A DNA stretch of 64,000 nucleotides from Bdellovibrionales bacterium (GTDB taxonomy: Bacteria; Bdellovibrionota; Bdellovibrionia; Bdellovibrionales; JAUICD01): positions 608,001 to 672,000 of the forward strand of contig OZ241865.1 in NCBI GenBank assembly GCA_965203275.1, in the 5' to 3' direction. A model generated the notes under the pieces. It ran no database searches. It saw nothing but the letters and a program-made list of their open reading frames with translations, and had not been told where the DNA came from. This document shows, piece by piece, positions 7,586-52,450 of this stretch (position 1 is the first letter of the stretch; the number at the start of each line of letters is the position of its first letter). A program made the translations under genes and the position numbers.

Positions 7586-8662
7586 GATAAGTATAAGGAG
7601 GGAGTATTATTGTATGAATAATGAAGGAGAGTACCCTCCGGGATCGGGCAACCCGGCAGTCAGGCATCCGAAAGAACTCTTTTTCCTTAACATCCTGTTT
7701 ATCCGGGATCTGGGATCTGGCAAACCGGCATCACTTCCCGGTATGCCAGATTGCCGGATCCCAGATCCCGGATCATGGGAGTGAATATAAAGTCTTGTTT
7801 CCTTAACATGGTGTTAGAAAACGAAGGTTTCCTCTCTACTCAAAGTGAACAGGCTTTTGAGGTAGCCAGCCTTTGATCGACGACGAAAGTCGTCGGGCTG
7901 GCTACCCAAAAGTGACCAGAGGTCAGTTCACTTTGAGTGAAATAAATCGATAAGTATAAGGAGGGAGTATTATTATATGAATAATGAAGGAGAGTACCCT
8001 CCGGGATCTGGGATCCGGCAACCCGGCATCAAAAAGAACTCTTTCCTTAACATTGTGTTAAAAAACGAAGGGTTTCTTCTTACTCAAAGTGAACAGGCTT
8101 TCTAGACGATGACCATTTTATCGATGGCGAAAGCCATCGTGGTCATCGCCAGAAAGTGGCCAGAGGCCAGTTCACTTTGAGTGAAACAGCTCAGCCTTTG
8201 ATCGACGGCGAGAGCCGTCGTGGTCATCGCCCAGGGTGTAAGAAGGAACTTTTTCCTTAACATGTAGTTAAGAGATGAGGAGATCCTTCTTACTAAAAGT
8301 AAACGGACTTTTGAGGTTGCCAGCGGTGATGAAGGAATTTTTTCCTTAACATGGTGTTAAAAAACGAAGATATCCTCTTTACTAAAAATAAACGGATTTT
8401 TGAGGCATTGCTCTTTTTAGACAGCATAAGCTGTCAGAGCAATGCCCAAAAACAGCCAGAGGCTGGTTTATTTTTAGTGAAAAAGATAAGAAGGCGAATA
8501 GCCTTCGGCTGGCAACCCAAAAGTGACCAGAGGTCAGTTTACTTTTAGTGAAAAAGATAAGAAGTATAAGGAGGGAGTATTATTATATGAATAATGGAGG
8601 ATAGAATCCTCCGGGGATCTGGGATCCGGGATCTGGTAAGCAAGTGTAAGAAGGAACTTTTT
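7586..8662. repeat. Mosaic of dispersed repeats (structured element, GGGATC/CCGG heptamer-like runs, 3 copies of a GGAGGGAGTATTATT module)
   Basis: Full structured copies at about 7838-7942, 8082-8186, 8381-8482; AAGTATAAGGAGGGAGTATTATT.TATGAATAATG at about 7589, 7952, 8561; repeated TTCCTTAACAT motif. Confidence 0.9.
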
Positions 8663-8666
8663 ACCA

Positions 8667-9716
8667 ATGAAATTAATAAAAAAATCTATAAAATACATCT
8701 TTGATAGATCGGCTCTGCAACTATCTAAAGGGCAAGCTGTTACTGAATATCTCTTATTAATGGTAATTGTATTAACTGTGATAGGAGCTTTTTTGCAAGC
8801 TTTTCATAAAGGCACTCGAACTTTTTTAGAAGGAATTTATGGGGATAATAATGAACAACATTATCTAGGTTGCCTTTTAAGAAAGGGCGAACTACCTGGA
8901 GAGCAACAGGGGAAATGCAAAATGCCTACATTTTCTTTTACAACACCTGATATATCTGTTCCACCAGCTCCGGCTATTCCACCAGCCCCTGATATCCCTC
9001 CCGCCCCACTGATTCCTCCCGCTCCCAACATTCCACCGCCCCCCAGTATCCCTCCTGCTCCATTGATTCCACCGGCTCCAGCTATTCCCCCAGCTCCAAA
9101 CATTCCTTTAGCCCCTAATATTCCTCCCGCTCCAAATATTCCACCAGGAGAAGGTGCTTCCAATGCAATCGCTCAAAATAAAGCAGGAGGAGCAGGTAGA
9201 GGAATAGGAGGTGGCTTAAATAAAGGGCTTATTCCTACAAAAAGAAATTCTAATAATACAGGGATATTTGGTACAGGTAGACTTCGCACAGGAGCAGGAG
9301 CAGGAGCAGGAGGTTCTGGTCAAAATAATACAGTTGCCTTAAATAAAGAAGAAAGTGATAGCATGTCTGTTGCCAATAGTAACAGTGGTTCATTAAATAG
9401 GGTGAGAGGAAGAGATATTATAGGTTCTCGTTTTGTAAGTCTTTCTCAAAAGGCAAAAAAACAAAGAGATAATCAAACTCGCATTAGAAGATCACCTGCC
9501 TCAGAAGCAGGAGGCGGGGGGACTGGACTTGTCAAAAAAGCCATTCCATTAGAAAATCGTACAATAACAACTCAAACTGATGATGTAGAAATCGGCTGGG
9601 ACTTTGCCTTTTTATTAAAAGTTTTAGTGATTGCTGGTATTCTTATTGGAATTTTTCTGCTCTTAGGAGGGCAGTTTCTGCAAATTAAAAAGGGCCTCGA
9701 AGGGGGAGGAACTTAA
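8667..9716 (+). CDS. Flp/TadE-like pilin N-terminus protein with Pro-rich repeats and C-terminal TM helix
   Basis: [15 protein letters not shown] prepilin-like motif, about 11 IPPAPx repeats, Gly-rich region, hydrophobic C-terminal helix. Confidence 0.7.
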
Positions 9717-11329
9717 ACATGAGGGGATTTTGGGTTTTGTTGTTTACGAATGTAAGCTGGCACATCTAAAACACCTGGCTCAAATGGTGAACTTAAAAGC
9801 TTCTCTGCTAATTTCTCTGCTGAATGTGCAGGTGAGTCTTCCGTTTGCATATCCATTGAAAGTTGCTGAGAGGATTTATTTTTTGAGTCAGTAGCAGTTT
9901 GCTTATAAGTTTTAATTTTTGCTAACAAGGCTTGTCTTGTTTGAATATCCTCATTCTCAGTGTTTTTTTTAATATTTTCCTTTGTACCTCCAGCCTCCGC
10001 AGTACCTCCAGCCTCCGCAGTACCTCCAGTCTCCGCAGTACCTTCAGCTCCCGCAGTATCTTCTTTAAAATTTTTATTATTTTCTTTTTTGTTGTGATCC
10101 ATATCCATATTATGTGCATTGTGATCTATATTATGTGTAGGCTTTGCAACATTTTCTACAGGCATTTCTACAGGTACATTTACAGGCACAGCTACAGGTT
10201 TAGGTGGGAGGTTAGTAAGTGTTTGATGAGTTGGTGTTTGAAAAGAGGCATCTACATCTATAGAAGGTGTAAAAGAGTGAGAGGCAAGGCTTGTATTCAC
10301 TTCTGCAAATGGGCGATGGGCGACAGATGGTTTTCTATTTCTAAAATTTCTCTGATAGATTTTAGCACTGTTGTGTTCATCAAAGCCAGTCGCAATGACT
10401 GTCACTTTTAATTCATCTGTCAGGCTTTCATCAATGACAGCACCAAAAATAATTTCTGCGTCTTCATGGGCCATATCTGTGACCAAAATAGAAGCTTCAT
10501 TGACTTCATGCAAACTCAAATTAGGAGGCCCTGTGACATTGATAATAATACCTGTAGCTCCATCAATAGAGATATTCTCTAATAAAGGTGAAGAAATAGC
10601 ATTGGTAGCAGCTTCTGTTGCTCGGTGATCTCCTGAAGCATGTCCTGCTCCCATAATGGCCATCCCTTGATTGGACATGACTGTTTTTATATCTGCAAAG
10701 TCTAAATTAATTAAACCTTTCACATTAATTAAATTAGAAATACCTTGAACAGCATTGAGTAGAACCTCATCTGCCTTTTTAAAAGTATCCAGCAGAGGAG
10801 TTTTTTCTGCTGAAATACTTAAAAGTTTTTGGTTTGGAATCACAATCAATGTGTCTACATTTTCTTTTAATTCAGATAAACCAATATCTGCGTGACGTTG
10901 CCTCCTACGTCCCTCAAAGACAAAAGGACGTGTGACAACACCAATAGTTAAGGCTCCCATATCTTTAGCAATTTTAGCAACAATAGGAGCTCCTCCAGTA
11001 CCTGTTCCACCGCCCATTCCAGCAGTGACAAATACCATATCTATACCTTTAAGAGCATTCATAATATCATTTTGTGATTCCATGGCTGCTCGCCGGCCAA
11101 TTTCAGGGTTGGCTCCTGCACCTAACCCTTTTGTGAGTTCCTGACCCAGCTGTATACGAATATCTGCTGAGTTAGAATTCAAAGCTTGCTTATCAGTGTT
11201 GGCAATAATAAATTCAACACCTTTTAAACCACTATTGATCATAGTGGACACGGCATTGCCACCACCACCGCCCACACCAATCACCTTGATATTGGCTCCT
11301 AATTCTACATTTTCGTCTAATTCTAACAT
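9713..11329 (-). CDS. ftsZ: Cell division protein FtsZ with long linker
   Basis: [25 protein letters not shown]-terminal LDVPAYIRK. Confidence 0.99.
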
Positions 11330-11512
11330 AGTAACTCCTTTTTAGTTTGTAGAATCTATTATTATCTCACTTTGCAAATCCAAAATCCAACAGGTCAAGC
11401 TCTTTGAGAAAGATGTCTTCATTGCCCACCTGCCAGATTATCTAAACTCTTTCAAAAAATCTTATACACTTTATTTCACTTAAGATGCACTAAGATGCAC
11501 TTAAGATGAACC

Positions 11513-12736
11513 CTAGTGAAATAACTTAAAAGCTGACTTTATTTTTTCAAACCACTGAGTAGATTGTGACACTCGGCCTCTTTTTTGTATTTCTTTTAAA
11601 CCATACAACAGTAAACCTATCCCCATCATAAAAGAAGGGGAACTGACTGTTTTTGTAAGTCCTCCTACATTTTGAATTTGTCCCCTACGAACAGGCATAT
11701 CAAAAAGAAACTCTCCCATTTCTACAAGACCTTCTAATTGACTTCCGCCCCCTACGAGTACGATACCAGATGCCATTTGATTTGCAAAACCTGTTTTTTG
11801 AATATTATTTTGGATAAAGTGAAATATTTCTTCCACACGGCTTTCAATGATCTCACAGAGGTATTTTCTTTTTATATCTTCAGATTTATGATTGCCTACA
11901 CTTATAACATCTAACTTTTCATCTTCCATCACAAGGTGAGGCATAGCACATCCAAATTGACATTTAAGGTTTTCTGCTGCATGAGGTGATGTCCTCAACA
12001 CAATGGCAATATCATTTGTGATAGAAGAGGCCCCTATAGGCAAAACTGCTGTATAAACCAGTTCTCCTTTTGTATAAATAATGATGTTTGTTGTTTCACT
12101 GCCAATATCTACAAGACCTACACCTAGTTTCTGCTCATCTGCACTCAATAAAAAATGAGCTGATGCTAGTGTATTTAATACTAAAGATTCTACTTTTAAA
12201 CCTGTTTTTTGACAACATTTTAAAACATTTTGCAAGGCTGTACGATTTGCTGTCACGATATGTACAGAGGATTCTAACCTCACACCTGACATGCCTATAG
12301 GGTCACTAATGCCTTCCTGATCGTCTACTTTAAAACCTTTAGATACAATATGAATTACGTTACGATCTGATGGAACAGAAACCGCTTGACTTGCATCCAT
12401 AACCCTTTGAATATCAATAGGGCGGATTTCTTTCCCTTGAATGGCAATCATACCCTTTGAATCGAAGGAATTAATATGACACCCTGAAATACCCACATAA
12501 ACTGTAGAAATACTTACTCCTGCCATGGCCTCTGCAGCTTCAACAGCTTCATGGATAGCTTTTGTGGTGGCATCAATATTGACCACTATTCCTTTACGTA
12601 AGCCACTTGTGGCTGCTCGCCCTACACCAATAATATCTATGCTGGATTCATAAACTTGACCGATCACAACACGTACTTCTACGTTACCTACATCTAGACT
12701 GGCAATAATGGATTCTTTGCGTTTGAGTTGTTTCAA
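11513..12736 (-). CDS. ftsA: Cell division protein FtsA
   Basis: LDVG, GLRKGIVVNI, DPIGMSGVRLE, VDIG, IVLVGGGS; lies between ftsQ and ftsZ; TTG start. Confidence 0.98.
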   Translation of the reverse strand: MKQLKRKESIIASLDVGNVEVRVVIGQVYESSIDIIGVGRAATSGLRKGIVVNIDATTKAIHEAVEAAEAMAGVSISTVYVGISGCHINSFDSKGMIAIQGKEIRPIDIQRVMDASQAVSVPSDRNVIHIVSKGFKVDDQEGISDPIGMSGVRLESSVHIVTANRTALQNVLKCCQKTGLKVESLVLNTLASAHFLLSADEQKLGVGLVDIGSETTNIIIYTKGELVYTAVLPIGASSITNDIAIVLRTSPHAAENLKCQFGCAMPHLVMEDEKLDVISVGNHKSEDIKRKYLCEIIESRVEEIFHFIQNNIQKTGFANQMASGIVLVGGGSQLEGLVEMGEFLFDMPVRRGQIQNVGGLTKTVSSPSFMMGIGLLLYGLKEIQKRGRVSQSTQWFEKIKSAFKLFH

Positions 12737-12758
12737 TTTTACCCCCCCCCTAAATAAG

Positions 12759-13502
12759 TTATCGGTGTTTTAAAGGCCTCACAAGCACTTTCTGATAGAA
12801 GTCAGCATCAATAACGCGTCCTGTAATATCTTGACTTCTTAAGTATTTTAATATTTTAGAAACACGTGCTATTTTAACAGGGATATGTTTTTCACCCAAC
12901 TGTATTTTCATTTGTTCCTTGAGTAAGTGAAGATAAATTTGATTTTCCTCTATTGTGATTTCATCAACTTTTTGCAAACTAAGGTCCCCTTGATCTGGTA
13001 AGTGAGATAACATATAGGTGAGTTTTTTTCTTATTTTTGTATCTTTTAAGAAACTTTGTTTAGAATACCTTATAATAGGTGCGAGGGGAGCTATCATCAG
13101 AGGGCTAGCATCTAATGTACTTCCGTCACGAGCAAGAGGGAAAACCGTTGCCCTGTGGTTGACTTCAAGAGCTATTATTTTTTTAGGTTTTAATAAAATC
13201 TTTAATTGATCAGGCCATATACGTTGTAACCGGAAGGCTTGAATCCATTTTTTTTTAGAAAGCTCTCTTTTGATTTGATAAGGATTAATACTCCAAAGAT
13301 GTCGTCCTTTCATTTGATCGAATTGTTTACGTAGGACATTGATATGATTTGTCCAATAGATTTCTTTTGTTTGAAACGAAGGAATATATGAAATATGAAT
13401 ATTTTTGAGTTTAAAAAAGTCTGATGAATAGATGAAGTAAAATCCAACCACCAAAGCAGTCACAAAACTGAAACAAAAAACTATAAAAGTGCGACGTTTC
13501 AT
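12759..13502 (-). CDS. ftsQ: Cell division protein FtsQ/DivIB
   Basis: N-terminal TM, POTRA-like WI....QRIWPDQL, C-terminal VIDADF; upstream of ftsA. Confidence 0.88.
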   Translation of the reverse strand: MKRRTFIVFCFSFVTALVVGFYFIYSSDFFKLKNIHISYIPSFQTKEIYWTNHINVLRKQFDQMKGRHLWSINPYQIKRELSKKKWIQAFRLQRIWPDQLKILLKPKKIIALEVNHRATVFPLARDGSTLDASPLMIAPLAPIIRYSKQSFLKDTKIRKKLTYMLSHLPDQGDLSLQKVDEITIEENQIYLHLLKEQMKIQLGEKHIPVKIARVSKILKYLRSQDITGRVIDADFYQKVLVRPLKHR

Positions 13503-13638
13503 CTTTTTAGGATAGCAGAAACCTTTCCATAAAAAAACACAATATAGACTTGAGTATTGAAAGATTTATCTAACTATAAAAACTATGAAAACAAAACCTG
13601 AGTTTTTTGTAAAGGTTCATTTGAGCTAAAAATAAAGT

Positions 13639-13711
13639 TCCTGAGTTTGATAGCCTGCAAAAATAAAGTTGAGCAGTAGGTTATGAGTCGAAAGGGATTT
13701 TGTGCCACTAG
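13639..13711 (+). mobile_element. Left-end fragment of CCTGAGTTTGA-TIR MITE
   Basis: Matches 38682-38760 and the reverse complement of 14720-14797. Confidence 0.75.
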
Positions 13712-13867
13712 GTTTTTGTTTTTGTGCCAGAATTTTAGACAATCTATGTTGTTTCACTCAAAGTGGGCTGTTTCACTAAAAATAAATAGGGCTTGACTTT
13801 TTAGATATATGTTGTTATAAAATCAAAAATTAATTAATTCAAAGAAGAAAAAGAAGGAGAAGTACAA

Positions 13868-14374: not shown

Positions 14375-14418
14375 TACCAATTCTATATTTGTTTCAAAGT
14401 GAGAATCTTTTTTTATTT

Positions 14419-14797
14419 TCTTGAGTTTGACAGTTGATTTGCAAATTTGGGCATTTTCTTTTTTGAGAATGCTTTATTTATAGGTATTAAAGGTTTGTAG
14501 ATTTTAATTTGTAAATTTTGGTGGAACTTCTAGTGAAGCATATTTTTGTAAATTTTTATCAATAAAACCTTGATATAGAAAGCTATGTATTATTGAGTAA
14601 AGATAATGATGAAAATATGAAAATCCTAAAAATAAGGGGAAAGATGAAGTGTCAGATGAATCAATTAATGATTTCCCCTAAATTAAAAAGCTTACAGTAA
14701 AAAGCTTACATTGTAGTTGTAGTGGCACAAAATCTCTCTCGGCTTATAACCTACTGAAATCTCACAACTTTATTTTTGCTGGCTATCAAACTCAGGA
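14419..14797 (-). mobile_element. MITE, longer variant of 38683-38874
   Basis: Ends TCTTGAGTTTGACAG and CTATCAAACTCAGGA are inverted repeats; both arms align to 38682-38875 in reverse. Confidence 0.75.
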
Positions 14798-18430: not shown

Positions 18431-18472
18431 ACTAGCCTCTGTTTCACTCAAAATAAATCATGCCGTCTTTTG

Positions 18473-19872
18473 GAGCTTGTCCCTGATATCGGTGAAAATA
18501 GACGGCTCATAAATTAGTTTTTAATTGTTTTTTCTTTTTGTCAATAATAATTTTTTTTAAACTTTGTTCTAATTGTTCTAAATCTTTAAATCCTTTAATG
18601 CTTTTGAAATGTTTTTCTGCTTCCAATAGACTCACAGCAGACCATCTTAAAACTTGATCTGAAGAAGAACTCCAATTCTTTACCCTCCGAACTTTTTCCC
18701 TCACAACTGAAAAAACAGACTCAATAGGATTTGTCGATGATAATGACCTCCTTAAAAGTAATGAAACTCCAAGCTTGATCGTTGTCAGTGTCTCCATCTC
18801 TGCCTCTTTTAAAGATGTGAATGCTGAATGATTGACCCGCTTTAACCAGCTTAATAAAGACTCATGCTCTAACTTCGATGACAACTCATCTGGCATACCA
18901 TGTAACTTCTTCCAACGACTCTTAAACTCTATGTGACGACTTGGAGGTAAGCAACTCAGAATATTTCTCTCTTTATGCTGAATACAACGCTGAACTACTG
19001 AACGACCTGAAAATACTCTATCTATTCCCTTCCTTAATGCTTTGCTACCATCAATCACAAAAAGATAACCCTTCTCTTTATCAAGACCACGACCTATAAG
19101 TCCCTCCAGAAGATCACGGCAAACTTCCCAACTCTCTGTATTGCCTTCTTTAAGACCTAATATAACCTTCTTACCTTGATCTGTGATTCCTAAGGCCACT
19201 ATAACCAGCGTAGAACCAATACCCACTCCATCTATCATTATCGCTGGAAACCTGTACTTACTTAAATCACGATTGTTAATCGACTCAAGGGCTTGTTTAG
19301 ATGACTTATTAAAAACTCTACTCACACTACTCCTAGAAAGTTTAAGCCCTCCTGAAATATCATCTAAAAGATGATTGTAATTCCGTGATGAAACTCCACT
19401 CATGGCATGTTTTAAAACACGATCACTGAGTATGTCATAGTGTTGAAGGGCTGAATAGATCTTAAGCCTCACTTCACGACCTGACTGCTTAACACGAGGC
19501 TTCCTAACCTGCAACTTTTGACCACCTGCAAGTATGCTACCTTTATCACTACCAGCTCTATGATATGGTGTATCTCTATGACGACCATAACGCTCACCGC
19601 AAAGCTCTAATAGCTCTGCTTCAAAAAAACCATAGACCGAACAAAGAATAGATGACTTGATCTCATCCTCTACAATCTGACGAATTTCTGACAAAGTATT
19701 GGCTGAAACTTGAAATGAATGACTATTTTTGGTACACTTCATAATGGCTCCTTTCTTTTTATTTTTAAAAGTTAATTGTTAATAAAATTTGGTTGGCTGA
19801 AATATGCCAACCAGGAGCCTTCTATCTTAACATCTTCTCTAAGAAAAATTCACCGAATTATAGGACATGCTC
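18473..19872 (-). mobile_element. Complete IS256-family insertion sequence (1400 bp)
   Basis: TIRs GAGCTTGTCCCTGATATCGGTGAA and (reverse complement) GAGCATGTCCTATAATTCGGTGAA; 8-bp target duplication GTCTTTTG at 18465-18472 and 19873-19880. Confidence 0.95.
18507..19742 (-). CDS. IS256-family (Mutator-type) DDE transposase
   Basis: IMIDG, VALGI..G.K..LG, FVIDGSKAL, QRCIQHKERN, STNPIES. Confidence 0.95.
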   Translation of the reverse strand: MKCTKNSHSFQVSANTLSEIRQIVEDEIKSSILCSVYGFFEAELLELCGERYGRHRDTPYHRAGSDKGSILAGGQKLQVRKPRVKQSGREVRLKIYSALQHYDILSDRVLKHAMSGVSSRNYNHLLDDISGGLKLSRSSVSRVFNKSSKQALESINNRDLSKYRFPAIMIDGVGIGSTLVIVALGITDQGKKVILGLKEGNTESWEVCRDLLEGLIGRGLDKEKGYLFVIDGSKALRKGIDRVFSGRSVVQRCIQHKERNILSCLPPSRHIEFKSRWKKLHGMPDELSSKLEHESLLSWLKRVNHSAFTSLKEAEMETLTTIKLGVSLLLRRSLSSTNPIESVFSVVREKVRRVKNWSSSSDQVLRWSAVSLLEAEKHFKSIKGFKDLEQLEQSLKKIIIDKKKKQLKTNL

Positions 19873-19880
19873 GTCTTTTG

Positions 19881-20110
19881 CACTCAAAGTGAACTGGCCT
19901 CTGGCCACTTTTGGACGATGACCGCAAAGGCTTTCGTCTTTGACAAAATGGTCATCGTCTCAAAAGCCTGTTCACTTTGAGTAAGGAGGATCCCTTCATT
20001 TTTTTTACACCATGTTAAGGAAAAAGTTCTTTCTCATGCTAATTTGCCGGGGTGCCAGGTCCCGGGTTGCCAGATCCAGATCCCGGATAAATATCATGTT
20101 AGGGAAACAA
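19881..20110. repeat. Structured repeat copy plus CCGG/GATC-rich module
   Basis: ACTCAAAGTGAAC...GTTCACTTTGAGT stem, ACACCATGTTAAGGAAAAAG motif, CCAGATCCCGG runs. Confidence 0.85.
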
Positions 20111-20650: not shown

Positions 20651-21010
20651 GTTTCATTGGGTTTCACTCAAAGTGACCAGGACTCAGGCCACTTTGAGTG
20701 AAAAAAAGAAGGAACTTTTTCCTTAACATGGTGTTAAGAGACAAGGAGATCCTTTCTACTAAAAGTAAACGGACTTTTGAGGTAGCCAGCCTTTGATCGA
20801 CGGCGAAAGCCGTCGGGCTGGCTATCCAAAAGTAGCCAGAGGCTAGTTTACTTTTAGTGAAACAAACTCCTTAACATGGTGTTAAGAGAGAAGGAGATCC
20901 TTCCTACTCAAAATGAGCGGGTTTTTGAGGCATTGCTCTTTTTGGACAGCGATAGCTGTCTGAGCAATGCCCAAAAACACACCAGAGGTGTGGCTCATTT
21001 TGAGTGAAAA
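20651..21010. repeat. Two full structured-repeat copies upstream of pilin
   Basis: About 20758-20862 and 20906-21009, each preceded by CCTTAACATGGTGTTAAGAGA. Confidence 0.9.
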
Positions 21011-36185: not shown

Positions 36186-37190
36186 CCAGCCGTTATTTTC
36201 ACTCAAAATGCATCATGCCGTCTTTTGCACTTGAAATGAACCACACATCTGTTTCCCTAAAATTGAACTAGCCTCTGGCTACTTTTGGGCAGTTAGCCCG
36301 ACGACTGTCGTCGTCGATCAAAGGCTAACTCCCTCAAAAGCTTGTTCAATTTTAGGAAGAAGGATGTCCTCATTTTTTTACTTCATATTAAGGAAAAAGA
36401 TTTCCTTCTGATGTTTGCTCTGACAGCTATCGCTGTCCAAAAAGAGCAATGTCGTTGGTTCACTAAAAGTAAACTAGCCTTTGTTTCACTCAAAGTGAAC
36501 TGGCCTCTGGCCACTTTTGGACAATGACCGCAAAGGCTTTCGCCTTTGACAAAATGGTCATTGCCTCAAAAGCCTGTTCACTTTGAGTAAGAAGGATATC
36601 ATCGTCTCTTAACTACATGTTAAGGGTTTGTTTCACTAAAAGTAAACTGACCTCTGGTCACTTTTGGGCAATCAGCCCGACGGCTCTCGCCGTCGATCAA
36701 AGGCTGATTGCCTCAAAAGTCCGTTTACTTTTAGTAGGGAGGATCTCCTCGTCTCTTAACTACATGTTAAGGAAAAAGTTCCTTTATTGCATTGAGCTTG
36801 CTCTTAAGGTAATAAAAGCACTTTTTCCCTAACATGGTGTAGAGGAGTAAAAGGATCCTCCTCTACTCAAAATAAATGGATTTTCTAGGCAGTTAGCCTT
36901 TGATGACGGCGGTAGCCGTCGGGCTAACTGCCAGAAAACATGCCAGAGGCATGATGCATTTTGAGTGAAAAAAAATGAGGACTTCGGAAGGCTCCCACTG
37001 CCCTATCCTCAAATAAAAACAAAATAGAAAAAGCAGAATCGAAGGGTGGCGGGTGGGGTTAGGGATAAGGGAGGTTATCCTTGTCTCTTTACACGATGTT
37101 AAGGAAAAAGTGCTTTCTTACACCTTTTGACTGCAATGACTACCGTCGTCGATCAAAGGCTGGCAACCTCAAAAATCCGTTTACTTTAAG
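36186..37190. repeat. Mosaic cluster of structured repeats plus G-rich module
   Basis: Copies at about 36253-36355, 36483-36590, 36631-36735 (reverse) and 36864-36970; module 36977-37110 also present at 45908-46055. Confidence 0.9.
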
Positions 37191-37355
37191 GTGCAACACA
37201 GCTTTAAGAAAGTCAAAAAAATACATGGATTTATAAAAAAGAAACAATCTTGTATCATCCAGTGGGTTTAATAGAATGGTTTGTAAAGTTTCGATGTTTG
37301 AGACTTCAAAGAAGGCATGGCAATCAATACAAGACTAAAGGATGATATTAAAGCC

Positions 37356-38471: not shown

Positions 38472-38682
38472 TGATTTCTAATTTTCAAATACCTTTTAAA
38501 TACCCTTTTCCTAACCTTTTAGAAAAAAAATCTAAAAAGACGAACATCTTATTTTCTTAACATGGTGTTCATCCGGGATCTGGGATCTGGGATCCCGGGA
38601 TCGGACAAACCGGCATCAGGTCCCAGATCCCGGGATGCCAGATTGCTTGATCCCGGATCCCGGGAGTGAAATAAATATAAGT

Positions 38683-38874: not shown

Positions 38875-38944
38875 ACAAGTGTCTATTATAAATAATCATT
38901 TTACCAATGCCATTGGCAAAATAGTCATTGCCTCAAAAATCTAT

Positions 38945-39872
38945 GCATTTTGAGTAGAGAAGGATCCCTTTATTCTTTTACACCATGTTAAGGAAAATTT
39001 CTTTTATTACCTCAAGAGCAAGCGGATTACGAATGAAACTCTTTTTCCTTAACATTTCACTCAAAATGAACTGGCCTCTGGCCACTTTTGGGTAGCCAGC
39101 CCGACGGCTCACGCCGTCGATCAAAGGCTGGCTACCTCAAAAGCTTGTTCATTTTGAGTAGAGAAGGATCCCTTTATTCTTTTACACCATGTTAAGGAAA
39201 ATTTCTTTTATTACCTCAAGAGCAAGCGGATTACGAATGAAACTCTTTTTCCTTAACATTTCACTCAAAATGAACTGGCCTCTGGCCACTTTTGGGTAGC
39301 CAGCCCGACGGCTCACGCCGTCGATCAAAGGCTGGCTACCTCAAAAGCTTGTTCATTTTGAGTAGAGAAGGAGCCTTTTATTCCTTTACACCATGTTAAG
39401 GAAATTTTTCTTTTATTGTCTTAAGAGCAAGCGGGTCTGCGAATGAAACTCTTTTTCCTTAACATTTCACTCAAAATGAACTGGCCTCTGGCCACTTTTG
39501 GGTAGCCAGCCCGACGGCTCACGCCGTCGATCAAAGGCTGGCTACCTCAAAAGCTTGTTCATTTTGAGTAGAGAAGGATCCCTTTATTCTTTTACACCAT
39601 GTTAAGGAAAATTTCTTTTATTACCTCAAGAGCAAGCGGATTACGAATGAAACTCTTTTTCCTTAACATTTCACTCAAAATGAACTGGCCTCTGGCCACT
39701 TTTGGGTAGCCAGCCCGACGGCTCACGCCGTCGATCAAAGGCTGGCTACCTCAAAAGCTTGTTCATTTTGAGTAGAGAAGGATCCCTTTATTCTTTTACA
39801 CCATGTTAAGGAAAAATTCTTTTATTGCCTCAAGAGCAAGCAGTTTGCGAATAAAACTCTGTTTCCCTAACA
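38945..39872. repeat. Tandem array of ~204-bp units, each holding one structured-repeat copy
   Basis: TTTCACTCAAAATGAACTGG starts at 39055, 39259, 39465, 39669, with a partial unit before. Confidence 0.96.
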
Positions 39873-40207
39873 TGGTGTTAAGAGACGAAAAGATCCTCCT
39901 TACTCAAAGTGAACAGGCTTTCTAGGCGATGACCATTTTATCGACGGCGAGAGCCGTCATGGTCATCGCCAGAAAGTGGCCAGAGGCCAGTTCACTTTGA
40001 GTGAAACAGAGGCTGGTTTATTTTTAGTGAAAGAGATAAGAAGGCGAATAGCCTTCGGCTGGCAACCCAAAAGTGACCAGAGGTCAGTTTACTTTTAGTG
40101 AAACAGTTGACTTTTCTTGACATATCCCACAAAATAATCTAATATAATATATAAAGAAGAACTTTTTATTCTGATATATAGTTCAACAATTAGCACACGG
40201 GGGAAAA

Positions 40208-40513: not shown

Positions 40514-40877
40514 AAAAACACTTTCCTCACTGATTCTGCCGATAAAAATAATGCCGTTCGACTCATAACCTACTGATTTTAATCAACTTTATTTTTGCTG
40601 GCTATCAAACTCAGGATTTATTTTGAGTGAACCAAAGGAACTTTTTCCTTAACATCGTGTAAAGAGAAAAAAGGATCCTCCCTACTCAAAATAAATGGAT
40701 TTTCTAGGCAGTTAGCCTTTGATCGACGACGATAGTCGTCGGGCTAACTGCCAGAAAACATGCCAGAGGCATGATGCATTTTGAGTGAAAATGACGGCTG
40801 GTTTACTTTTAGTGAAAAATATGAAGAAGAACTTTTTATTCTGTATAGTTCAGGGGCAATTAGCACACGGGGGAAAA

Positions 40878-45182: not shown

Positions 45183-45259
<77 letters not shown>

Positions 45260-45261
45260 TT

Positions 45262-46115
45262 TGTCTCACTAAAAATAAACCAGCCGTTTGTTTCACTCAA
45301 AATAAATCATGCCTCTGGCATGTTTTCTGGCAGTTAGCCCGACGGCTACCGCCGTCGATTAAAGGCTAACTGCCTAGAAAATTCATTTATTTTGAGTAGA
45401 GAGGATCCTTTTATTCCTTTACACCATGTTAAGGAAAAAGTTCCTTCATCTGCTGCTGGCAACCTCAAAAGTCCGTTTACTTTTAGTAGGAAGTTAGTTG
45501 TTTCACTAAAAGTAAACTAGCCTCTGGCTACTTTTGGATAGCCAGCCCGACGGCTACCGCCGTCGATCAAAGGCTGGCTATCTCAAAAGTCCGTTTACTT
45601 TTAGTAGGAAGTTAGTTGTTTCACTCAAAATGAGCCACACCTCTGGTGTGTTTTTTGATGTTGCCTGCAAAGGCTTTCGCCTTTGACAAAATGGTCATCG
45701 TCTCAAAAGCCTGTTCACTTTGAGTAAGGAGGATCCCTTCGTTTTTTTACACCATGTTAAGGAAACAAGACGTTCATTTTTTTGTTTTTTTTATTTTCTT
45801 TTAGATTCTGCATAATTTTCAAAAAAGCATAAATATTATGAGGGGAGGCGGGAGCAGGCTGAAGATCTTCCGCAGACCCGCTTGCTCTCCAAAAGCAAGC
45901 GAAGGTTGAGGACTTCGGAAGCCTGCACCCGCATTCCACTCATAAAAAACATACAAATAGAAAAGCAGAATCAAAGGGTGGCGGGTGGGGTTAGGGATAA
46001 TCCTTTGGATGCCCCGGATCCCAGAAAAAATCAACACGATGTTAAGGAAACAAGATGTTTGTTTCCCGTCGACAAAATGGTCATTGCCTCAAAAGCCTGA
46101 CCACTTTTAGTGAAA
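45262..46115. repeat. Repeat mosaic between tRNA-Asp and the gene array
   Basis: Structured copies at about 45291-45397, 45500-45605, 45619-45725; G-rich module 45908-46055. Confidence 0.9.
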
Positions 46116-46133
46116 CGAATAAGAGTTCATGGG

Positions 46134-46643
46134 TTACTCTGGTGGTTTTTGTTTAGTTAATTCATTAGATAAATGTTGATTCAATAAATTTAATATATCC
46201 CTATAGTTTTGATTATTTTCTTTTACCATGTCGTCAACTTTTTTCTCAAGCTTACTGATCTGTGTAGGTATATGATTGTATACTTGTTCTTGGATAGGCT
46301 TAATTGTAGCAACCAGTAGATCTCTTAAGTTATTTTCTGATTGGTTTACCAATTCCCTTAAGTTATTCTCTGATTGGTTTACCTGTTCCTTTAAGCTATT
46401 TACCAGTTCTTTTAAGTTATTTTCTGATTGGTTTACCAATTCCCTTAAGTTATTTTCTGATTTGTCTATCCGTTCATTTAATTTATTTTCTGATTTGTCT
46501 ATCCGTTCATTTAATCTATTTTCTGATTGAGTTGTCCTTTTCACCGCTCTATCATAAAGAAAAAAGCCCATAAAAGATATAGCCATGATTGTCGGTAGGT
46601 CTAAATATTCAACTATCTTTAAAATAAATTCATAGAAACCCAT
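46134..46643 (-). CDS. Array paralog 9: TM-anchored SEN-repeat coiled-coil protein (169 aa, N-term type A)
   Basis: GAAGGAGG RBS; conserved termini; variable 11/18-aa modules. Confidence 0.9.
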   Translation of the reverse strand: MGFYEFILKIVEYLDLPTIMAISFMGFFLYDRAVKRTTQSENRLNERIDKSENKLNERIDKSENNLRELVNQSENNLKELVNSLKEQVNQSENNLRELVNQSENNLRDLLVATIKPIQEQVYNHIPTQISKLEKKVDDMVKENNQNYRDILNLLNQHLSNELTKQKPPE

Positions 46644-46771
46644 AATGTCCTCCTTCGTTATACCATCACCTTATCAATATAAAAAAGCATCCCACTAGCT
46701 ATATTGGTAAGCCTTTTTAGGTTTTCTGTATTTTCTTTAGCCATTTCTTCTCTTATAAAAGAGTTCATGGT

Positions 46772-47227
46772 TTACTCTGGTGGTTTTTGTTTAGTTAATT
46801 CATTAGATAAATGTTGATTCAATAAATTTAATATATCCCTATAGTTTTGATTATTTTCTTTTATCATGTTGTCAACTTTTTTCTCAAGCGTACTGATCTG
46901 TGTAGGTATATGATTGTATACTTGTTCTTGGATAGGCTTAATTGTAGCAGTCAGTAAATCCCTTAAGTTATTTTCTGATTGCTTTACTAATTCCCTTAAG
47001 TTATTTTCCAGTCGGTCTATCCGTTCATTTAAGTTATTCTCTGATTTGTTTACTAATTCCCTTAAGTTATTTTCTGATTTGTCTATCCGTTCATTTAATC
47101 TATTTTCTGATTGAGTTGTCCTTTTCACCGCTCTATCATAAAGAAAAAAGCCCATAAAAGATATAGCCATGATTGTTGGTAGGTCTAAATATTCAACTAT
47201 CTTTAAAATAAATTCATAGAAACCCAT
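46772..47227 (-). CDS. Array paralog 8 (151 aa, type A)
   Basis: Same architecture and RBS. Confidence 0.9.
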   Translation of the reverse strand: MGFYEFILKIVEYLDLPTIMAISFMGFFLYDRAVKRTTQSENRLNERIDKSENNLRELVNKSENNLNERIDRLENNLRELVKQSENNLRDLLTATIKPIQEQVYNHIPTQISTLEKKVDNMIKENNQNYRDILNLLNQHLSNELTKQKPPE

Positions 47228-47355
47228 AATGTCCTCCTTCGTTATACCATCACCTTATCAATATAAAAAAGCATCCCACTAGCTATATTGGTAAGCCTTT
47301 TTAGGTTTTCTGTATTTTCTTTAGCCATTTCTTCTCTTATAAAAGAGTCCATGGT

Positions 47356-47778
47356 TTACTCCGGTGGTTTCTGTTTAGTTAGTTCATTAGATAAATGTTG
47401 ATTCAATAAATTTAATATATTCTTATAGTTTTGATTATTTTCTTTTATCATGTCGTCAACTTTTTTCTCAAGCTTATTGATCTGTGTAGGTATATGATTG
47501 TATACTTGTTCTTGGATAGGCTTAATTGTAGCAGTCAGTAAATCTCTTAAGTTATTTTCTGATTGGCTTATCCGTTCATTTAAGTTATTCTCTGATTTGT
47601 TTACTAATTCCCTTAAGTTATTTTCTGATTTGTCTATCCGTTCATTTAATCTATTTTCTGATTGAGTTGTCCTTTTCACCGCTCTATCATAAAGAAAAAA
47701 TCCCATAAAAGATATAGCCATGATTGTCGGTAGGTCTAAATATTCAACTATCTTTAAAATAAATTCATAGAAACCCAT
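47356..47778 (-). CDS. Array paralog 7 (140 aa, type A)
   Basis: Same architecture and RBS. Confidence 0.9.
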   Translation of the reverse strand: MGFYEFILKIVEYLDLPTIMAISFMGFFLYDRAVKRTTQSENRLNERIDKSENNLRELVNKSENNLNERISQSENNLRDLLTATIKPIQEQVYNHIPTQINKLEKKVDDMIKENNQNYKNILNLLNQHLSNELTKQKPPE

Positions 47779-47907
47779 AATGTCCTCCTTCGTTATACCA
47801 TCACCTTATCAATATAAAAAAAGCATCCCACTAGCTATATTGGTAAGCCTTTTTAGGTTTTCTGTATTTTCTTTAGCCATTTCTTCTCTTATAAAAGAGT
47901 TCATGGT

Positions 47908-48351
47908 TTACTCCGGTGGTTTTTGTTTAGTTAGTTCATTAGATAAATGTTGATTCAATAAATTTAATATATCCCTATAGTTTTGATTATTTTCTTTTAC
48001 CATGTCGTCAACTTTTTTCTCAAGCTTACTGATCTGTGTAGGTATATGATTGTATACTTGTTCTTGGATAGGCTTAATTGTAGCAACCAGTAGATCTCTT
48101 AAGTTATTTTCTGATTGGTTTACTAATTCCCTTAAGTTATTTTCTGATTGGTTTACTAATTCCCTTAAGTTATTCTCTGATTGGTTTACCTGTTCCTTTA
48201 AGCTATTTACCAGTTCTTTTAAGTTATTTTCTGATTTGTCTATCCGTGTCATCGCTCTATCATAAAAAAACAAGCCAACACCAACTATACCTATAATTGT
48301 CCATACGTCTAAAGTTTCAAATGCCTTTAAAACAAATTCATAGAAACCCAT
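47908..48351 (-). CDS. Array paralog 6 (147 aa, N-term type B)
   Basis: Alternative TM segment VLKAFETLDVWTIIGIVGVGLFF. Confidence 0.9.
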   Translation of the reverse strand: MGFYEFVLKAFETLDVWTIIGIVGVGLFFYDRAMTRIDKSENNLKELVNSLKEQVNQSENNLRELVNQSENNLRELVNQSENNLRDLLVATIKPIQEQVYNHIPTQISKLEKKVDDMVKENNQNYRDILNLLNQHLSNELTKQKPPE

Positions 48352-48480
48352 AATGTCCTCCTTTGTTATACCATCACCTTATCAATATAAAAAAAGCATC
48401 CAACTAGCTATATTGGCAAGCCTTTTTAGGTTTTCTGTATTTTCTTTAGCCATTTCTTCTCTTATAAAAGAGTTCATGGT

Positions 48481-48891
48481 TTACTCCGGTGGTTTCTGTT
48501 TAGTTAATTCATTAGATAAATGTTGATTCAATAAATTTAATATATCCTTATAGTTTTGATTATTTTCTTTTACCATGTCGTCAACTTTTTTCTCAAGCTT
48601 ACTGATCTGTGTAGGTATATGATTGTATACTTGTTCTTGGATAGGCTTAATTGTAGCAGTCAGTAGATCTCTTAATTTATTTTCTGATTGGTTTACTAAT
48701 TCCCTTAAGTTATTCTCTGATTGGTTTACCTGTTCCTTTAAGCTATTTACCAGTTCTTTTAAGTTATTCTCTGATTTGTCTATCCGTGTCATCGCTCTAT
48801 CATAAAAAAACAAGCCAACACCAACTATACCTATAATTGTCCATACGTCTAAAGTTTCAAATGCCTTTAAAACAAATTCATAGAAACCCAT
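48481..48891 (-). CDS. Array paralog 5 (136 aa, type B)
   Basis: Alternative TM segment as in 47908. Confidence 0.9.
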   Translation of the reverse strand: MGFYEFVLKAFETLDVWTIIGIVGVGLFFYDRAMTRIDKSENNLKELVNSLKEQVNQSENNLRELVNQSENKLRDLLTATIKPIQEQVYNHIPTQISKLEKKVDDMVKENNQNYKDILNLLNQHLSNELTKQKPPE

Positions 48892-49020
48892 AATGTCCTC
48901 CTTTGTTATACCATCACCTTATCAATATAAAAAAAGCATCCAACTAGCTATATTGGCAAGCCTTTTTAGGTTTTCTGTATTTTCTTTAGCCATTTCTTCT
49001 CTTATAAAAGAGTCCATAGC

Positions 49021-49509
49021 TTACTCCGGTGGTTTCTGTTTAGTTAGTTCATTAGATAAATGTTGATTCAATAAATTTAATATATCCTTATAGTTTTGAT
49101 TATTTTCTTTTATCATGTTGTCAACTTTTTTCTCAAGCTTACTGATCTGTGTAGGTATATGATTGTATACTTGTTCTTGGATAGGCTTAATTGTAGCAAC
49201 CAGTAGATCTCTTAAGTTATTTTCCAGTCGGTCTATCCGTTCATTTAATCTATTTTCTGATTGGTTTACCAATTCCCTTAAGTTATTTTCTGATTTGTCT
49301 ATCCGTTCATTTAATTTATTTTCTGATTGGTTTATTCGTTCATTTAATTTATTTTCTGATTTGTCTATCCGTTCATTTAATCTATTTTCTGATTGAGTTG
49401 TCCTTTTCACCGCTCTATCATAAAGAAAAAAGCCCATAAAAGATATAGCCATGATTGTCGGTAGGTCTAAATATTCAACTATTTTTAAAATAAATTCATA
49501 GAAACCCAT
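49021..49509 (-). CDS. Array paralog 4 (162 aa, type A)
   Basis: Same architecture and RBS. Confidence 0.9.
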   Translation of the reverse strand: MGFYEFILKIVEYLDLPTIMAISFMGFFLYDRAVKRTTQSENRLNERIDKSENKLNERINQSENKLNERIDKSENNLRELVNQSENRLNERIDRLENNLRDLLVATIKPIQEQVYNHIPTQISKLEKKVDNMIKENNQNYKDILNLLNQHLSNELTKQKPPE

Positions 49510-49637
49510 AATGTCCTCCTTCGTTATACCATCACCTTATCAATATAAAAAAGCATCCCACTAGCTATATTGGTAAGCCTTTTTAGGTTTTCTGTATTTT
49601 CTTTAGCTATTTCTTCTCTTATAAAAGAGTCCATGGT

Positions 49638-50114
49638 TTACTCCGGTGGTTTTTGTTTAGTTAGTTCATTAGATAAATGTTGATTCAATAAATTTACTAT
49701 ATCCTTATAGTTTTGATTATTTTCTTTTATCATGTTGTCAACTTTTTTCTCAAGCGTACTGATCTGTGTAGGTATATGATTATATACTTGTTCTTGGATA
49801 GGCTTAATTGTAGCAGTCAGTAATTCCCTTAAGTTATTCTCTGATTTGTTTACTAATTCCCTTAAGTTATTCTCTGATTGGTTTACCTGTTCCTTTAAGC
49901 TATTTACCAGTTCTCTTAAGTTATTTTCTGATTGGTCTATCCGTTCATTTAATCTATTTTCTGATTTGTCTATCCGTTCATTTAATCTATTTTCTGATTG
50001 AGTTGTCCTTTTCACCGCTCTATCATAAAGAAAAAATCCCATAAAAGATATAGCCATGATTGTCGGTAGGTCTAAATATTCAACTATCTTTAAAATAAAT
50101 TCATAGAAACCCAT
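49638..50114 (-). CDS. Array paralog 3 (158 aa, type A)
   Basis: Same architecture and RBS. Confidence 0.9.
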   Translation of the reverse strand: MGFYEFILKIVEYLDLPTIMAISFMGFFLYDRAVKRTTQSENRLNERIDKSENRLNERIDQSENNLRELVNSLKEQVNQSENNLRELVNKSENNLRELLTATIKPIQEQVYNHIPTQISTLEKKVDNMIKENNQNYKDIVNLLNQHLSNELTKQKPPE

Positions 50115-50243
50115 AATGTCCTCCTTCGTTATACCATCACCTTATCAATATAAAAAAAGCATCCCACTAGCTATATTGGTAAGCCTTTTTAGGTTTTCTG
50201 TATTTTCTTTAGCCATTTCTTCTCTTATAAAAGAGTTCATGGT

Positions 50244-50819
50244 TTACTCCGGTGGTTTTTGTTTAGTTAGTTCATTAGATAAATGTTGATTCAATAAATT
50301 TAATATATCCCTATAGTTTTGATTATTTTCTTTTACCATGTCGTCAACTTTTTTCTCAAGCTTACTGATCTGTGTAGGTATATGATTGTATACTTGTTCT
50401 TGGATAGGCTTAATTGTAGCAACCAGTAGATCTCTTAAGTTATTTTCTGATTGGTTTACCTGTTCCTTTAAGCTATTTACCAGTTCTTTTAAGTTATTTT
50501 CTGATTGGTCTATCCGTTCATTTAATCTATTTTCTGATTGGTTTACCAATTCCCTTAAGTTATTCTCTGATTTGTCTATCCGTTCATTTAACTTATTTTC
50601 TGATTTGTCTATTCGTTCATTTAATCTATTTTCTGATTTGTCTATCCGTTCATTTAAGTTATTTTCTGATTTGTCTATCCGTTCATTTAATCTATTTTCT
50701 GATTGAGTTGTCCTTTTCACCGCTCTATCATAAAGAAAAAATCCCATAAAAGATATAGCCATGATTGTTGGTAGATCTAAATATTCAACTATTTTTAAAA
50801 TAAATTCATAGAAACCCAT
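50244..50819 (-). CDS. Array paralog 2 (191 aa, type A)
   Basis: Same architecture and RBS. Confidence 0.9.
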   Translation of the reverse strand: MGFYEFILKIVEYLDLPTIMAISFMGFFLYDRAVKRTTQSENRLNERIDKSENNLNERIDKSENRLNERIDKSENKLNERIDKSENNLRELVNQSENRLNERIDQSENNLKELVNSLKEQVNQSENNLRDLLVATIKPIQEQVYNHIPTQISKLEKKVDDMVKENNQNYRDILNLLNQHLSNELTKQKPPE

Positions 50820-50948
50820 AATGTCCTCCTTCGTTATACCATCACCTTATCAATATAAAAAAAGCATCCCACTAGCTATATTGGTAAGCCTTTTTAGGTT
50901 TTCTGTATTTTCTTTAGCCATTTCTTCTCTTATAAAAGAGTTCATGGT

Positions 50949-51491
50949 TTACTCCGGTGGTTTTTGTTTAGTTAGTTCATTAGATAAATGTTGATTCAAT
51001 AAATTTAATATATCCCTATAGTTTTGATTATTTTCTTTTACCATGTCGTCAACTTTTTTCTCAAGCTTACTGATCTGTGTAGGTATATGATTGTATACTT
51101 GTTCTTGGATAGGCTTAATTGTAGCAACCAGTAGATCTCTTAAGTTATTTTCTGATTGGTTTACCTGTTCCTTTAAGCTATTTACCAGTTCTTTTAAGTT
51201 ATTTTCTGATTGGTCTATCCGTTCATTTAATCTATTTTCTGATTGGTTTACCAATTCCCTTAAGTTATTCTCTGATTTGTCTATCCGTTCATTTAACTTA
51301 TTTTCTGATTTGTCTATTCGTTCATTTAATCTATTTTCTGATTTGTCTATCCGTTCATTTAATCTATTTTCTGATTGAGTTGTCCTTTTCACCGCTCTAT
51401 CATAAAGAAAAAATCCCATAAAAGATATAGCCATGATTGTTGGTAGGTCTAAATATTCAACTATCTTTAAAATAAATTCATAGAAACCCAT
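50949..51491 (-). CDS. Array paralog 1 (180 aa, type A), first in transcription order
   Basis: Same architecture; unique sequence upstream of about 51540. Confidence 0.9.
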   Translation of the reverse strand: MGFYEFILKIVEYLDLPTIMAISFMGFFLYDRAVKRTTQSENRLNERIDKSENRLNERIDKSENKLNERIDKSENNLRELVNQSENRLNERIDQSENNLKELVNSLKEQVNQSENNLRDLLVATIKPIQEQVYNHIPTQISKLEKKVDDMVKENNQNYRDILNLLNQHLSNELTKQKPPE

Positions 51492-51829
51492 AATGTCCTC
51501 CTTCGTTATACCATCACCTTATCAATATAAAAAAAGCATTAAAAAGTGCATAATCATAAAATATTATCTAAAGCCCGTCTAGCAAAAAACACCAGGAACA
51601 TACTATTTATGTATCGTCAGAGTTTAGTCTGACTTTAATCAAAATTGTATAGAGTTGGTTTTATTTTGTAGCTTTGGCATTTAACAATAGCTTTAAAATC
51701 TCTGTATGTCCTTTTTCACTAACTCACATCTTTTTAAAGTATAAAAAGCCGTCTTAAGCATCAATATCAATAAAGTCGGCTACGTAATTATCTTACTATG
51801 AAACAACATTAAAGTCAAGTCTTTTTTAT

Positions 51830-52450
51830 CTGCCAGATCCCGTATCCCGGGAGTGAAACAGAGGCTAGTTCAATTTTAGTGAGACAAACGCGGTCATTGC
51901 CCAAAAACATGGGTGTAAGAATGAACTTTTTCCTTAACATGTGGTCAAGAGACAAAGAGATCCTTCCTACTCAAAGTGAACAGACTTTTGAGACAATGAC
52001 CATTTTGCCAACGGCGAAAGCCGTTGCGGTCATTGTCCAAAAGTGGCCAGAGGCCAGTTCACTTTGAGTGAACCAATGGCATTGCTCTTTTTGGACAGCG
52101 ATAGCTGTCAGAGCAATGTCCAAAAGTAGCCAGAGGCTAGTTTACTTTTAGTGAAAATCAAATGAGGCAATGACCATTTTGTCAACGGCGTAAGCCGTTG
52201 CGGTCGAAAGGTGTAAGAAAGAACTTTTTCCTTAACATGGTGTCAATTCGGGATCCGGAATCCGAGATCCGGGATCAGGTAACCCGGCAACCCGGCAAAA
52301 AAAAACTTTTTCCTTAACATGGTGTCAAAAAGCAAGAGGATCCTTTCTACTAAAAGTAAACGGACTTTTGAGACATTGCTCTTTTTGGACAGCGATAGCT
52401 GTCAGAGCAATGTCCAAAAGTAGCCAGAGGCTAGTTTACTTTTAGTGAAA
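51830..52450. repeat. Repeat mosaic (structured copies and CCGG/GATC runs)
   Basis: Full copies at about 51969-52072 and 52348-52450, plus fragments. Confidence 0.9.

Follow-up and report, generated by a model that had tools for sequence, protein, structure and literature searches.

A strand-specific three-way-junction repeat in a Bdellovibrionales genome, a candidate mobile element acting as folded single-stranded DNA

A stretch of 64,000 nt from the genome of a Bdellovibrionales bacterium (contig OZ241865.1, positions 608,001 to 672,000; hereafter the window, to which coordinates refer unless another source is named) carries many copies of a non-coding repeat of ~145 nt that folds around a three-way junction. 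The genome, denoted G000, comprises 2.57 Mb in one contig and is 90% complete by markers; G001 belongs to the same genus. On balance, the repeat probably represents a new family of non-autonomous mobile DNA elements that act in the form of folded single-stranded DNA (ssDNA).

A covariance model, built as a previous sequence-only reading of this DNA had proposed, detected 21 full copies in the window between 7799 and 52450 (112–164 bits; 10 on the + and 11 on the − strand). Likewise, a profile hidden Markov model scan returned 22 near-full matches and 11 fragments, and adds to the covariance-model set an inverted chimera at 6413–6527. The sequence-only reading had described about 20 copies of a ~105-nt element within 7838..52450; its count and its placement of the P1, P2 and P3 arm pairs (7838, 8381, 20758 and 20906) hold, but the unit is longer, the 5′ motif having been missed, and the copies are not confined to this region. 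A profile scan of G000 gave 1296 non-overlapping matches, 779 of them near-full and together 5% of genome length, vs none in a block-shuffled G000. Flank profiles show that the unit starts at the conserved 5′ motif TTTCCYTAACAT, ~40 nt ahead of P1 and the three-way junction, and ends with the previously noted GTGAAA plus a short variable tail. The fold has three unpaired bases at the junction, one bulged base and a T-rich loop, and reaches z-scores of −8 to −12 relative to shuffles on both strands, with DNA and RNA parameters alike. The single-stranded features reported earlier are indeed conserved: the bulged A is kept in 596 of 624 intact copies, the P3 loop reads C(AGA)G in 684 of 771 cores, and the T-rich asymmetric internal loop is present in the fold of the model copy (Table 1). 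Both P1 arms are perfectly matched in 558/691 cores. Each stem occurs in 3–10 common alleles that are partly reshuffled, 71 of the 630 possible P1–P2–P3 combinations being present. Variants with an extra arm were found in relatives and, likewise, in nine G000 copies of 129–132 nt. A hairpin between the purine and pyrimidine tracts showed no covariation (−1.30 kcal/mol for the real and −1.39 for permuted sequences), and rolling-hairpin (flip/flop) inversion was rejected (1/615).

The pattern of substitutions supports selection on single-strand structure, with one functional strand. Across 48 distinct copies taken from three assemblies (13 in the window and 35 in relatives), pairing holds in 96.5% of 1966 cells, and both sides vary in 30 of 41 pairs, while controls with slid partners gave 35–48% pairing. 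The compensatory changes on one fold that had been proposed from the letters survive a tree-based correction: 127 branch events alter both partners, and 120 of these lead from one Watson–Crick pair to another, vs a mean of 4.3 and a maximum of 31 in 2000 column re-pairings, on a tree that is blurred by recombination between copies. Single mismatches are G·T far more often than A·C, with 132:23 in 771 cores of G000 and 38:6 in 65 congeneric cores.

As for the nature of this strand, ssDNA is better supported than a non-coding RNA (ncRNA), because of the apical sequences, the loop types and an even orientation to host transcription. The apex reads GCGNNAGC in 511 of the 624 intact copies, GCGNNNAGC in 54 and RCGNNAGY in 41. 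None of the intact copies carries GCGNNAGC at the apex on the other strand, which, together with the G·T excess in G000, bears out the earlier proposal of one functional strand. The GCGNNAGC mini-hairpin is described as exceptionally stable as DNA, far less so as RNA, and as occurring at ssDNA origins (PMC13037366). The 753 apical loops in G000 comprise 398 GNRA loops, 231 GNYA loops and some 60 pentaloops of the form G...A. Consequently, the previous argument from GNRA-rich loops fails in G000, since GATA and GGTA are not GNRA and nearly a third of the loops are GNYA. Between co-directional genes, 37 copies lie sense and 32 antisense. Of the two options in the sequence-only reading, a mobile ncRNA or an ssDNA substrate, the second is thus the one that gains. 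Fold energy does not separate DNA from RNA.

The arrangement of the copies reveals that the nesting pattern is, at least in part, true nested insertion. In 73 triples, a complete copy lies between the 5′ half and the 3′ half of another, and the outer P1 arms match in 30 of these vs 9.3 expected and at most 20 in any of 2000 shuffles; the P1 arm of the inserted copy itself matches in 2/73. Among 1395 3′ ends, 642 lead straight into part of another copy, and such joints are most frequent at the AGA loop, with further peaks at the bulge, the T-rich loop and the foot and loop of the 5′ hairpin. Joints in the element body are same-strand (468 sense, 32 ambiguous and 29 scored as antisense, the latter, as far as listed, in self-complementary P1 arms), and the 115 antisense joints lead only into the loop of the 5′-motif hairpin. 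The copies form 406 clusters, of which 282 are one-directional, 98 divergent with 3′ ends outward and 6 convergent, and only 4 of 779 full copies lie inside open reading frames (ORFs) of 200 aa or more. At G000:C1:280787-281349, four tandem full copies stand within one such frame.

After subtraction of chance matches, ~1224 5′ ends (1360 less 136) and ~1353 3′ ends (1395 less 42) were counted, near-equal numbers that do not fit a retro-type 5′ truncation. Most readable cases show a target loss of 0–16 bases, and the gained filler is a head of 13–26 nt, of about ten types, which pairs with the element's own TTCC. No target-site duplication was found, the best 8-mer match between flanks being 5.97 vs 5.87 permuted in the congeneric set and 6.04 vs 5.92 in G000. 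The left flank of congeneric copies resembles RAAANRR only loosely. Pairing of the 5′ filler back onto the flank of the target gave z-scores of −4 to −6 in 250 non-independent G000 flanks and −2 to −3 in 76 congeneric flanks, with none in 18 unique flanks. As many as 1091 of the 1224 5′ flanks lie within other repeats, and adjacency of copies to tRNA genes (10/37) was no higher than background. Where an end faces a stop codon, 70 of 174 3′ ends lie within 20 nt of it, as do 12 of 109 5′ motifs; this adjacency may mean that the 3′ end deletes DNA until it meets a boundary that is essential.

A mechanism can be outlined on the logic of the HUH enzymes of IS200/IS605 and REP/RAYT (PMC6006769, PMC8266576, PMC3116915). 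The strand would be exposed at the replication fork or during repair, and a protein supplied in trans would bind the fold, via the bulged A, the T-rich loop and the AGA and GNNA loops, as well as the 5′ motif. The bound protein could then cut both element ends and transfer the strand into another folded single strand, and host repair would tidy the joints. Each end probably reacts alone too, deleting neighbouring DNA up to an essential gene boundary. For IS608 and TnpA-REP, strand-specific action on ssDNA at subterminal hairpins with required bulges is described (PMC6006769, PMC8266576). The data establish the fold, its strand, both ends, the nesting and where joints fall; the repeat behaves like a selfish ssDNA mobile element, with exposure in single-stranded form, an enzyme and present activity all presumed. 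Many bacterial repeat families have no proven mover (bcr1, RPE, ERIC, rRNA intervening sequences), and here the clues are unusually sharp. The fold covaries deeply, the loops carry a signature specific to DNA, self-targeting is strand-specific, joints number in the hundreds, and the range spans one genus. New biology, and possibly a tool, would come from an enzyme that recognises three-way junctions in DNA and inserts into the loops of hairpins; repeats of this kind fill 5% of a small genome and adjoin expanded accessory gene families. Moreover, close relatives lack the element, and comparing gene content within the genus and with its sisters could identify the enzyme.

Several observations weigh against this interpretation. 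Apices of the congeneric set comprise 29 GNRA and 5 GNYA loops, often T-A closed, and fit the earlier GNRA argument better; the mini-hairpin signature is consequently not family-wide. Block changes in both arms may also come from hairpin-templated repair, and more weight is therefore placed on the bulge and the G·T mismatches, which such repair cannot make. In 43 of the 73 triples the outer arms do not match, and these need later recombination or one-ended deletions. The joints are imprecise and without a fixed target word, unlike those of IS608, and no clean empty site emerged when contigs of four sequencing runs were compared with a 19.5-kb stretch. As to a lagging-strand bias, the cumulative GC skew of G000 shows no single origin–terminus pattern; the scrambled skew suggests many rearrangements, possibly between repeats. 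To the same side belong the searches for a moving enzyme, which in G000 covered named families and motif scans. No Y1/RAYT gene was found there, either with PF01797 or in six-frame searches with RAYT and IS200 proteins; NF047646 was absent from G000 and G001; and no match over cut-off was obtained in G000 for PF02486 (Rep_trans), PF03432 (relaxase) or PF01446 (Rep_1, with a silent control), nor for IS91 (PF04986, control likewise silent). The one Y1 gene in G001 belongs to an ordinary IS200, and no copy of the element lies near it.

A RAYT was found in G002 but not in G000 or G001, and G002 holds no copy of the element. Searches for IS110, with working controls, were negative in G000 and G001, and no reverse transcriptase was found in G000. 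The proposed HUH or integron-like enzyme encoded elsewhere was thus not found: the searches of G000 gave neither Y1/RAYT nor reverse transcriptase, and the element does not follow attC rules. What G000 does encode is two tyrosine recombinases, 30 Rpn genes, 14 four-helix-bundle genes and IS256 transposase genes (PF00872), along with genes that we take to be IS1634-like DDE genes and serine recombinases. A weak relaxase match was rejected because it sits in a dehydrogenase-like ORF, and a cluster of "110 Rpn genes" proved to be a single-linkage artefact, family searches giving 30. The moving enzyme would be either lost, visiting, or outside the families searched. A broader version is offered tentatively, as a possibility we hold with some hesitation: an ssDNA mobility system, so far unrecognised, that works without HUH, DDE, IS110 or reverse transcriptase enzymes, in which a primase/polymerase-type mini-hairpin on a three-way junction recruits host or unannotated proteins, the unit is copied into any folded single strand, and the same machinery moves other structured repeats and four-helix-bundle cassettes of G000. 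If this is true, the fixed fold and some 1300 mapped joints would allow a direct test of the long-standing question of how bacterial repeats without a transposase move.

A dedicated transposase could also be dispensed with if the fold stalls replication, non-specific nucleases (e.g. Rpn/YhgA) or repair enzymes make 3′ ends, polymerase template switching at microhomologies places copies of the unit in other hairpins, and recombination spreads composite alleles. We consider this doubtful, although more likely than the other rivals; it accounts for the imprecise joints with filler and microhomology and for the inverted chimeras fused at the apical hairpin. The 30 Rpn genes of G000 lie, with one exception, ≤1.5 kb from a copy (29/30) vs 34% of single-copy genes, copies occur in 6/16 Rpn windows of G001 vs 1 copy in 80 kb of control DNA, and RpnA is described as making priming sites that permit template switching (PMC5350276). 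However, pilin genes are equally close to copies (23/23), as are 68% of other paralogues, so that nearness to a copy is a mark of dispensable DNA. No copy was found in G003, which has 16 Rpn genes, and in the same account RpnA showed no cruciform preference (PMC5350276). Such a process would furthermore erase the bulge and the internal loop, and it leaves the fixed 5′ motif and strand unexplained. Movement of a structured RNA through an RNA intermediate (SINE-like), or a functional ncRNA, appears unlikely. The fold is stable as RNA as well, G·U-type pairs are common, congeneric loops are mostly GNRA, and G001 has two group II-type reverse transcriptases and one other, the latter ~450 nt from a copy. 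On the other hand, G000 has no reverse transcriptase, 5′-truncated copies are not in excess, and the 231 GNYA loops, pentaloops and AGA triloop speak against RNA, as does the fact that the transcribed strand is not favoured; no sigma-70 site was found inside the copies scanned, nor any Rfam family.

The repeat might instead be a passenger or partner of a heptamer-flanked four-helix-bundle (23S rRNA IVP, Avd-like) gene cassette (PMC4990558), both being moved by a host polymerase or nuclease that the cassette protein recruits; we regard this as improbable. Nearly all of the 14 such genes in G000 have a copy ~100 nt downstream, an identical site in the gene is hit in G000 and G001, and cassette and element alike form divergent head-to-head pairs. 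Nevertheless, PF05635 is present in 52/151 genomes of the order and the element in 3, all four gene loci on large contigs of the relative G004 are without a copy, and the copies of G004 sit on contigs of another organism (see below). The copies break the four-helix-bundle gene, which makes the gene a target. Co-occurrence of the element, the IVP gene and Rpn in G000, G001 and G004 was considered and rejected in view of the foreign origin of the copy-bearing G004 contigs, whereby support for a tie to the four-helix gene is removed. Still less probable is an attC-like site that a tyrosine recombinase would recombine in its folded ssDNA form. An extrahelical base and an asymmetric loop in a long stem would suit such a site, and G000 and G001 encode a tyrosine recombinase of 187 aa that consists of the catalytic domain alone (G000:C1:2047789-2048352, L010; 72% identical in G001, 61% in G002). 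The attC consensus core is AAC/GTT, but the inner P1 triplet is not fixed as such; both P1 arms travel together, gene-cassette arrays are missing, the joints are imprecise, and G002 has the recombinase and no copy. Lowest of all we place domestication by the host, in which copies would serve the cell as terminators, mRNA stabilisers or nucleoid sites. The 3′ ends abut stop codons with no room for a native terminator, and copies lie within a ribosomal-protein operon of a relative. Against this, nesting destroys older copies, other repeats account for 91–95% of the 5′ flanks, and there is neither a strand bias nor a range beyond one genus; a secondary host role may exist.

Turning back to the interpretation as mobile ssDNA, the element works like REPINs and resembles bcr1, yet it is a member of none of the families compared, since it has no GTAG foot, no RAYT was found, its ends are not inverted repeats, targets are not duplicated and the joints are imprecise. 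The earlier statement that no known family was recognised stands: at Rfam gathering cut-offs only tRNAs pass, with weak microRNA-like matches far below, and neither the REP foot and RAYT nor MITE repeats were found. With REP/BIME/REPIN-RAYT systems, as described, it shares an intergenic location, hundreds of copies, a hairpin with a conserved bulge, clusters, tandem units with flanks, insertion in or beside older copies and presumed action as ssDNA (PMC3116915, PMC8266576, PMC6006769). Unlike these, it has no GTAG/GGAG foot but pyrimidines ending in T before P1 and TTCC before the 5′ hairpin, it is one branched unit of 145 nt rather than a hairpin of 21–65 nt or inverted doublet, no RAYT is present in G000 or G001, the joints are imprecise, and it fills 5% of the genome. 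The bcr1 repeat of the Bacillus cereus group, compared by its description only, is similar in its length of ~155 bp, its non-autonomous character and its branched fold with compensatory changes, and no linked enzyme is shown in that account (PMC3184786); bcr1 is, however, flanked by 5-bp direct repeats and described as transcribed, whereas the present element shows no duplication and has a three-way junction with a DNA mini-hairpin and strong self-nesting. The ends of IS200/IS605 and their non-autonomous derivatives are likewise asymmetric with subterminal structures, strand-specific and without target duplication (PMC6006769), but here no fixed target tetranucleotide or guide covariation is seen, target bases are lost, and a cognate TnpA is missing. 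Prokaryotic MITEs (Correia, RUP, ERIC/RU) are also under 200 bp, non-coding and folding (PMC3184786); in this element P1 is internal rather than terminal, terminal inverted repeats and target duplications are absent, and the two ends differ. The GCGNNAGC mini-hairpin, here capping a long arm, recurs in the phage G4 origin, RSF1010 ssiA and the N4 promoter, which are described as single functional sites (PMC13037366) and have only this motif in common with the element. Integron attC sites differ in their fixed AAC/GTT core, cassette array and IntI integrase, and retron, group II and DGR elements in their linked reverse transcriptase, which G000 lacks.

By BLAST and covariance model, the element was found in three of the 151 genomes of the order (G000, G001 and G004). 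In G004 the copies are confined to contigs C1, C4 and C11, which are closer to G000 than the rest and hold 13 copies in ~80 kb, vs none in ~116 kb of the others. The rplN gene on C11 is 98% identical to that of G001, and another G004 rplN, at 79%, is located on C14. These contigs thus come from a G001-like organism and contaminate the G004 bin, so that a single genus seems to hold the whole family. In species genomes, a pattern scan gave at least 23 loci, all from one Bdellovibrionales metagenome-assembled genome record among the matches listed. None of the 62 pattern matches in metagenomes (55 loci) and viruses (7 loci) fits the element profile, and these matches are consequently ascribed to chance. 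A literature search, with most subscription papers outside its scope, gave no account of this repeat. Extra partial rplN copies stand beside element arrays on C11 and in G001.

Table 1. Copies of the element in the window and anatomy of the model copy
Feature	Position	Strand	Basis
Inverted chimera: two 3′ halves joined at apical hairpin, plus 3′ fragment	6413..6582	.	
Full copy, anatomical model (144 nt)	7799..7942	+	Covariance model, 159.6 bits; fold
5′ motif TTCCTTAACAT with imperfect hairpin, almost invariant in its left arm and variable in its right	7799..7817	+	
Purine tract, then pyrimidine tract; variation mostly transitions	7818..7837	+	
P1 5′ arm, 13 bp, partner 7926-7938	7838..7850	+	Fold, covariation
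Three purine-rich unpaired junction bases	7851..7853	+	Fold
P2 arm, built of 6 bp, a bulged A (7860), a further 11 bp, an asymmetric T-rich loop (7872-7877) and the apical stem	7854..7912	+	
GNNA apical loop of P2 arm	7885-7888	+	
P3 arm: 5 bp closing AGA triloop (7918-7920); main self-insertion hot spot	7913..7925	+	
P1 3′ arm and 3′ tail (consensus GAAACA(A/G), last bases variable)	7926..7946	+	
Full copy, then internal fragment at 8191-8233	8043..8186	+	Profile, covariance model
Nested insertion, older copy split around full copy: older 5′ half (8253-8325), ~16-nt head, full copy (8342-8482), older 3′ half (8490-8553)	8253..8553	+	
Full copy	19878..20022	-	Covariance model
Two full copies head to tail (20719-20862, 20867-21009)	20719..21009	+	Covariance model
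Divergent cluster: - copies 36252-36395, 36484-36627, 36631-36774; + copy 36825-36970	36252..36970	.	Covariance model
5′ fragment	37128..37191	-	Profile
Four - copies in ~204-bp tandem units (39055-39813), + copy (39863-40006), 3′ fragments	38909..40103	.	
Full copy	40645..40790	+	Covariance model
Cluster next to tRNA-Asp: copies 45291-45436, 45501-45611 (without 5′ motif), 45619-45764 (mosaic); fragments 45454-45492, 46066-46115	45291..46115	-	Covariance model, profile
Full copies 51930-52073 and 52310-52450; between them stacked 3′ fragments (52078-52206) and an orphan 5′ motif with heptamer run	51930..52450	+	Covariance model, profile

Within the window (Table 1), the P1 arm of the older 3′ half in the nested insertion at 8253 matches that of the 5′ half. 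In the divergent cluster at 36252, the heads face each other over the remnant of another hairpin repeat, and in the cluster at 38909 the 3′ end of each tandem − copy is joined into an opposite-strand 5′-motif loop. A second structured repeat, seen at 45770-46010 and 36975-37070, consists of GATCTTCCGCA, a GCTTGCTC hairpin, GAGGACTTCG and a G-rich end; about 64 marker copies were counted, it is present in loci of the relatives too, and its hairpin is often targeted by the element, giving divergent element pairs. Heptamer arrays of the GGGATCC type occur at 7620-7790, 38560-38680 and 52240-52300. Genome-wide there are 416 such arrays, 252 of which have the 5′ motif of the element within the next 70 nt, and arrays flank four-helix-bundle genes too. 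Directly after an element 3′ end begin about four tandem copies of a ~240-bp unit (6613-7560), whose marker was found 14 times in G000.

Genes in the neighbourhood include an IS256-family (Mutator) transposase at 18507-19742 (−), which has nine genome copies and lies 136 nt from an element copy. At 46134-51491 (−), a tandem array holds nine paralogous small genes (136–191 aa), the proteins of which have an N-terminal membrane helix followed by 11-aa coiled-coil repeats in varying number; they belong to no clear Pfam/NCBIfam family, and related families with 30–35 members occur elsewhere in G000. The G001 reverse transcriptase near an element copy (L112) measures 590 aa and has a long N-terminal extension, the copy being placed past its stop. 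At locus L139 (1100-2500, genome G035), two different four-helix-bundle genes stand head to head, with a perfect inverted repeat spanning both 5′ untranslated regions and the first ~12 codons, and similar divergent pairs were found in several genomes of the order. In G000, G001 and G004, a conserved hairpin takes in the ribosome-binding site of the four-helix-bundle gene (L105, L100-L109), and some of the G004 gene copies carry in-frame insertions of ~60 nt.

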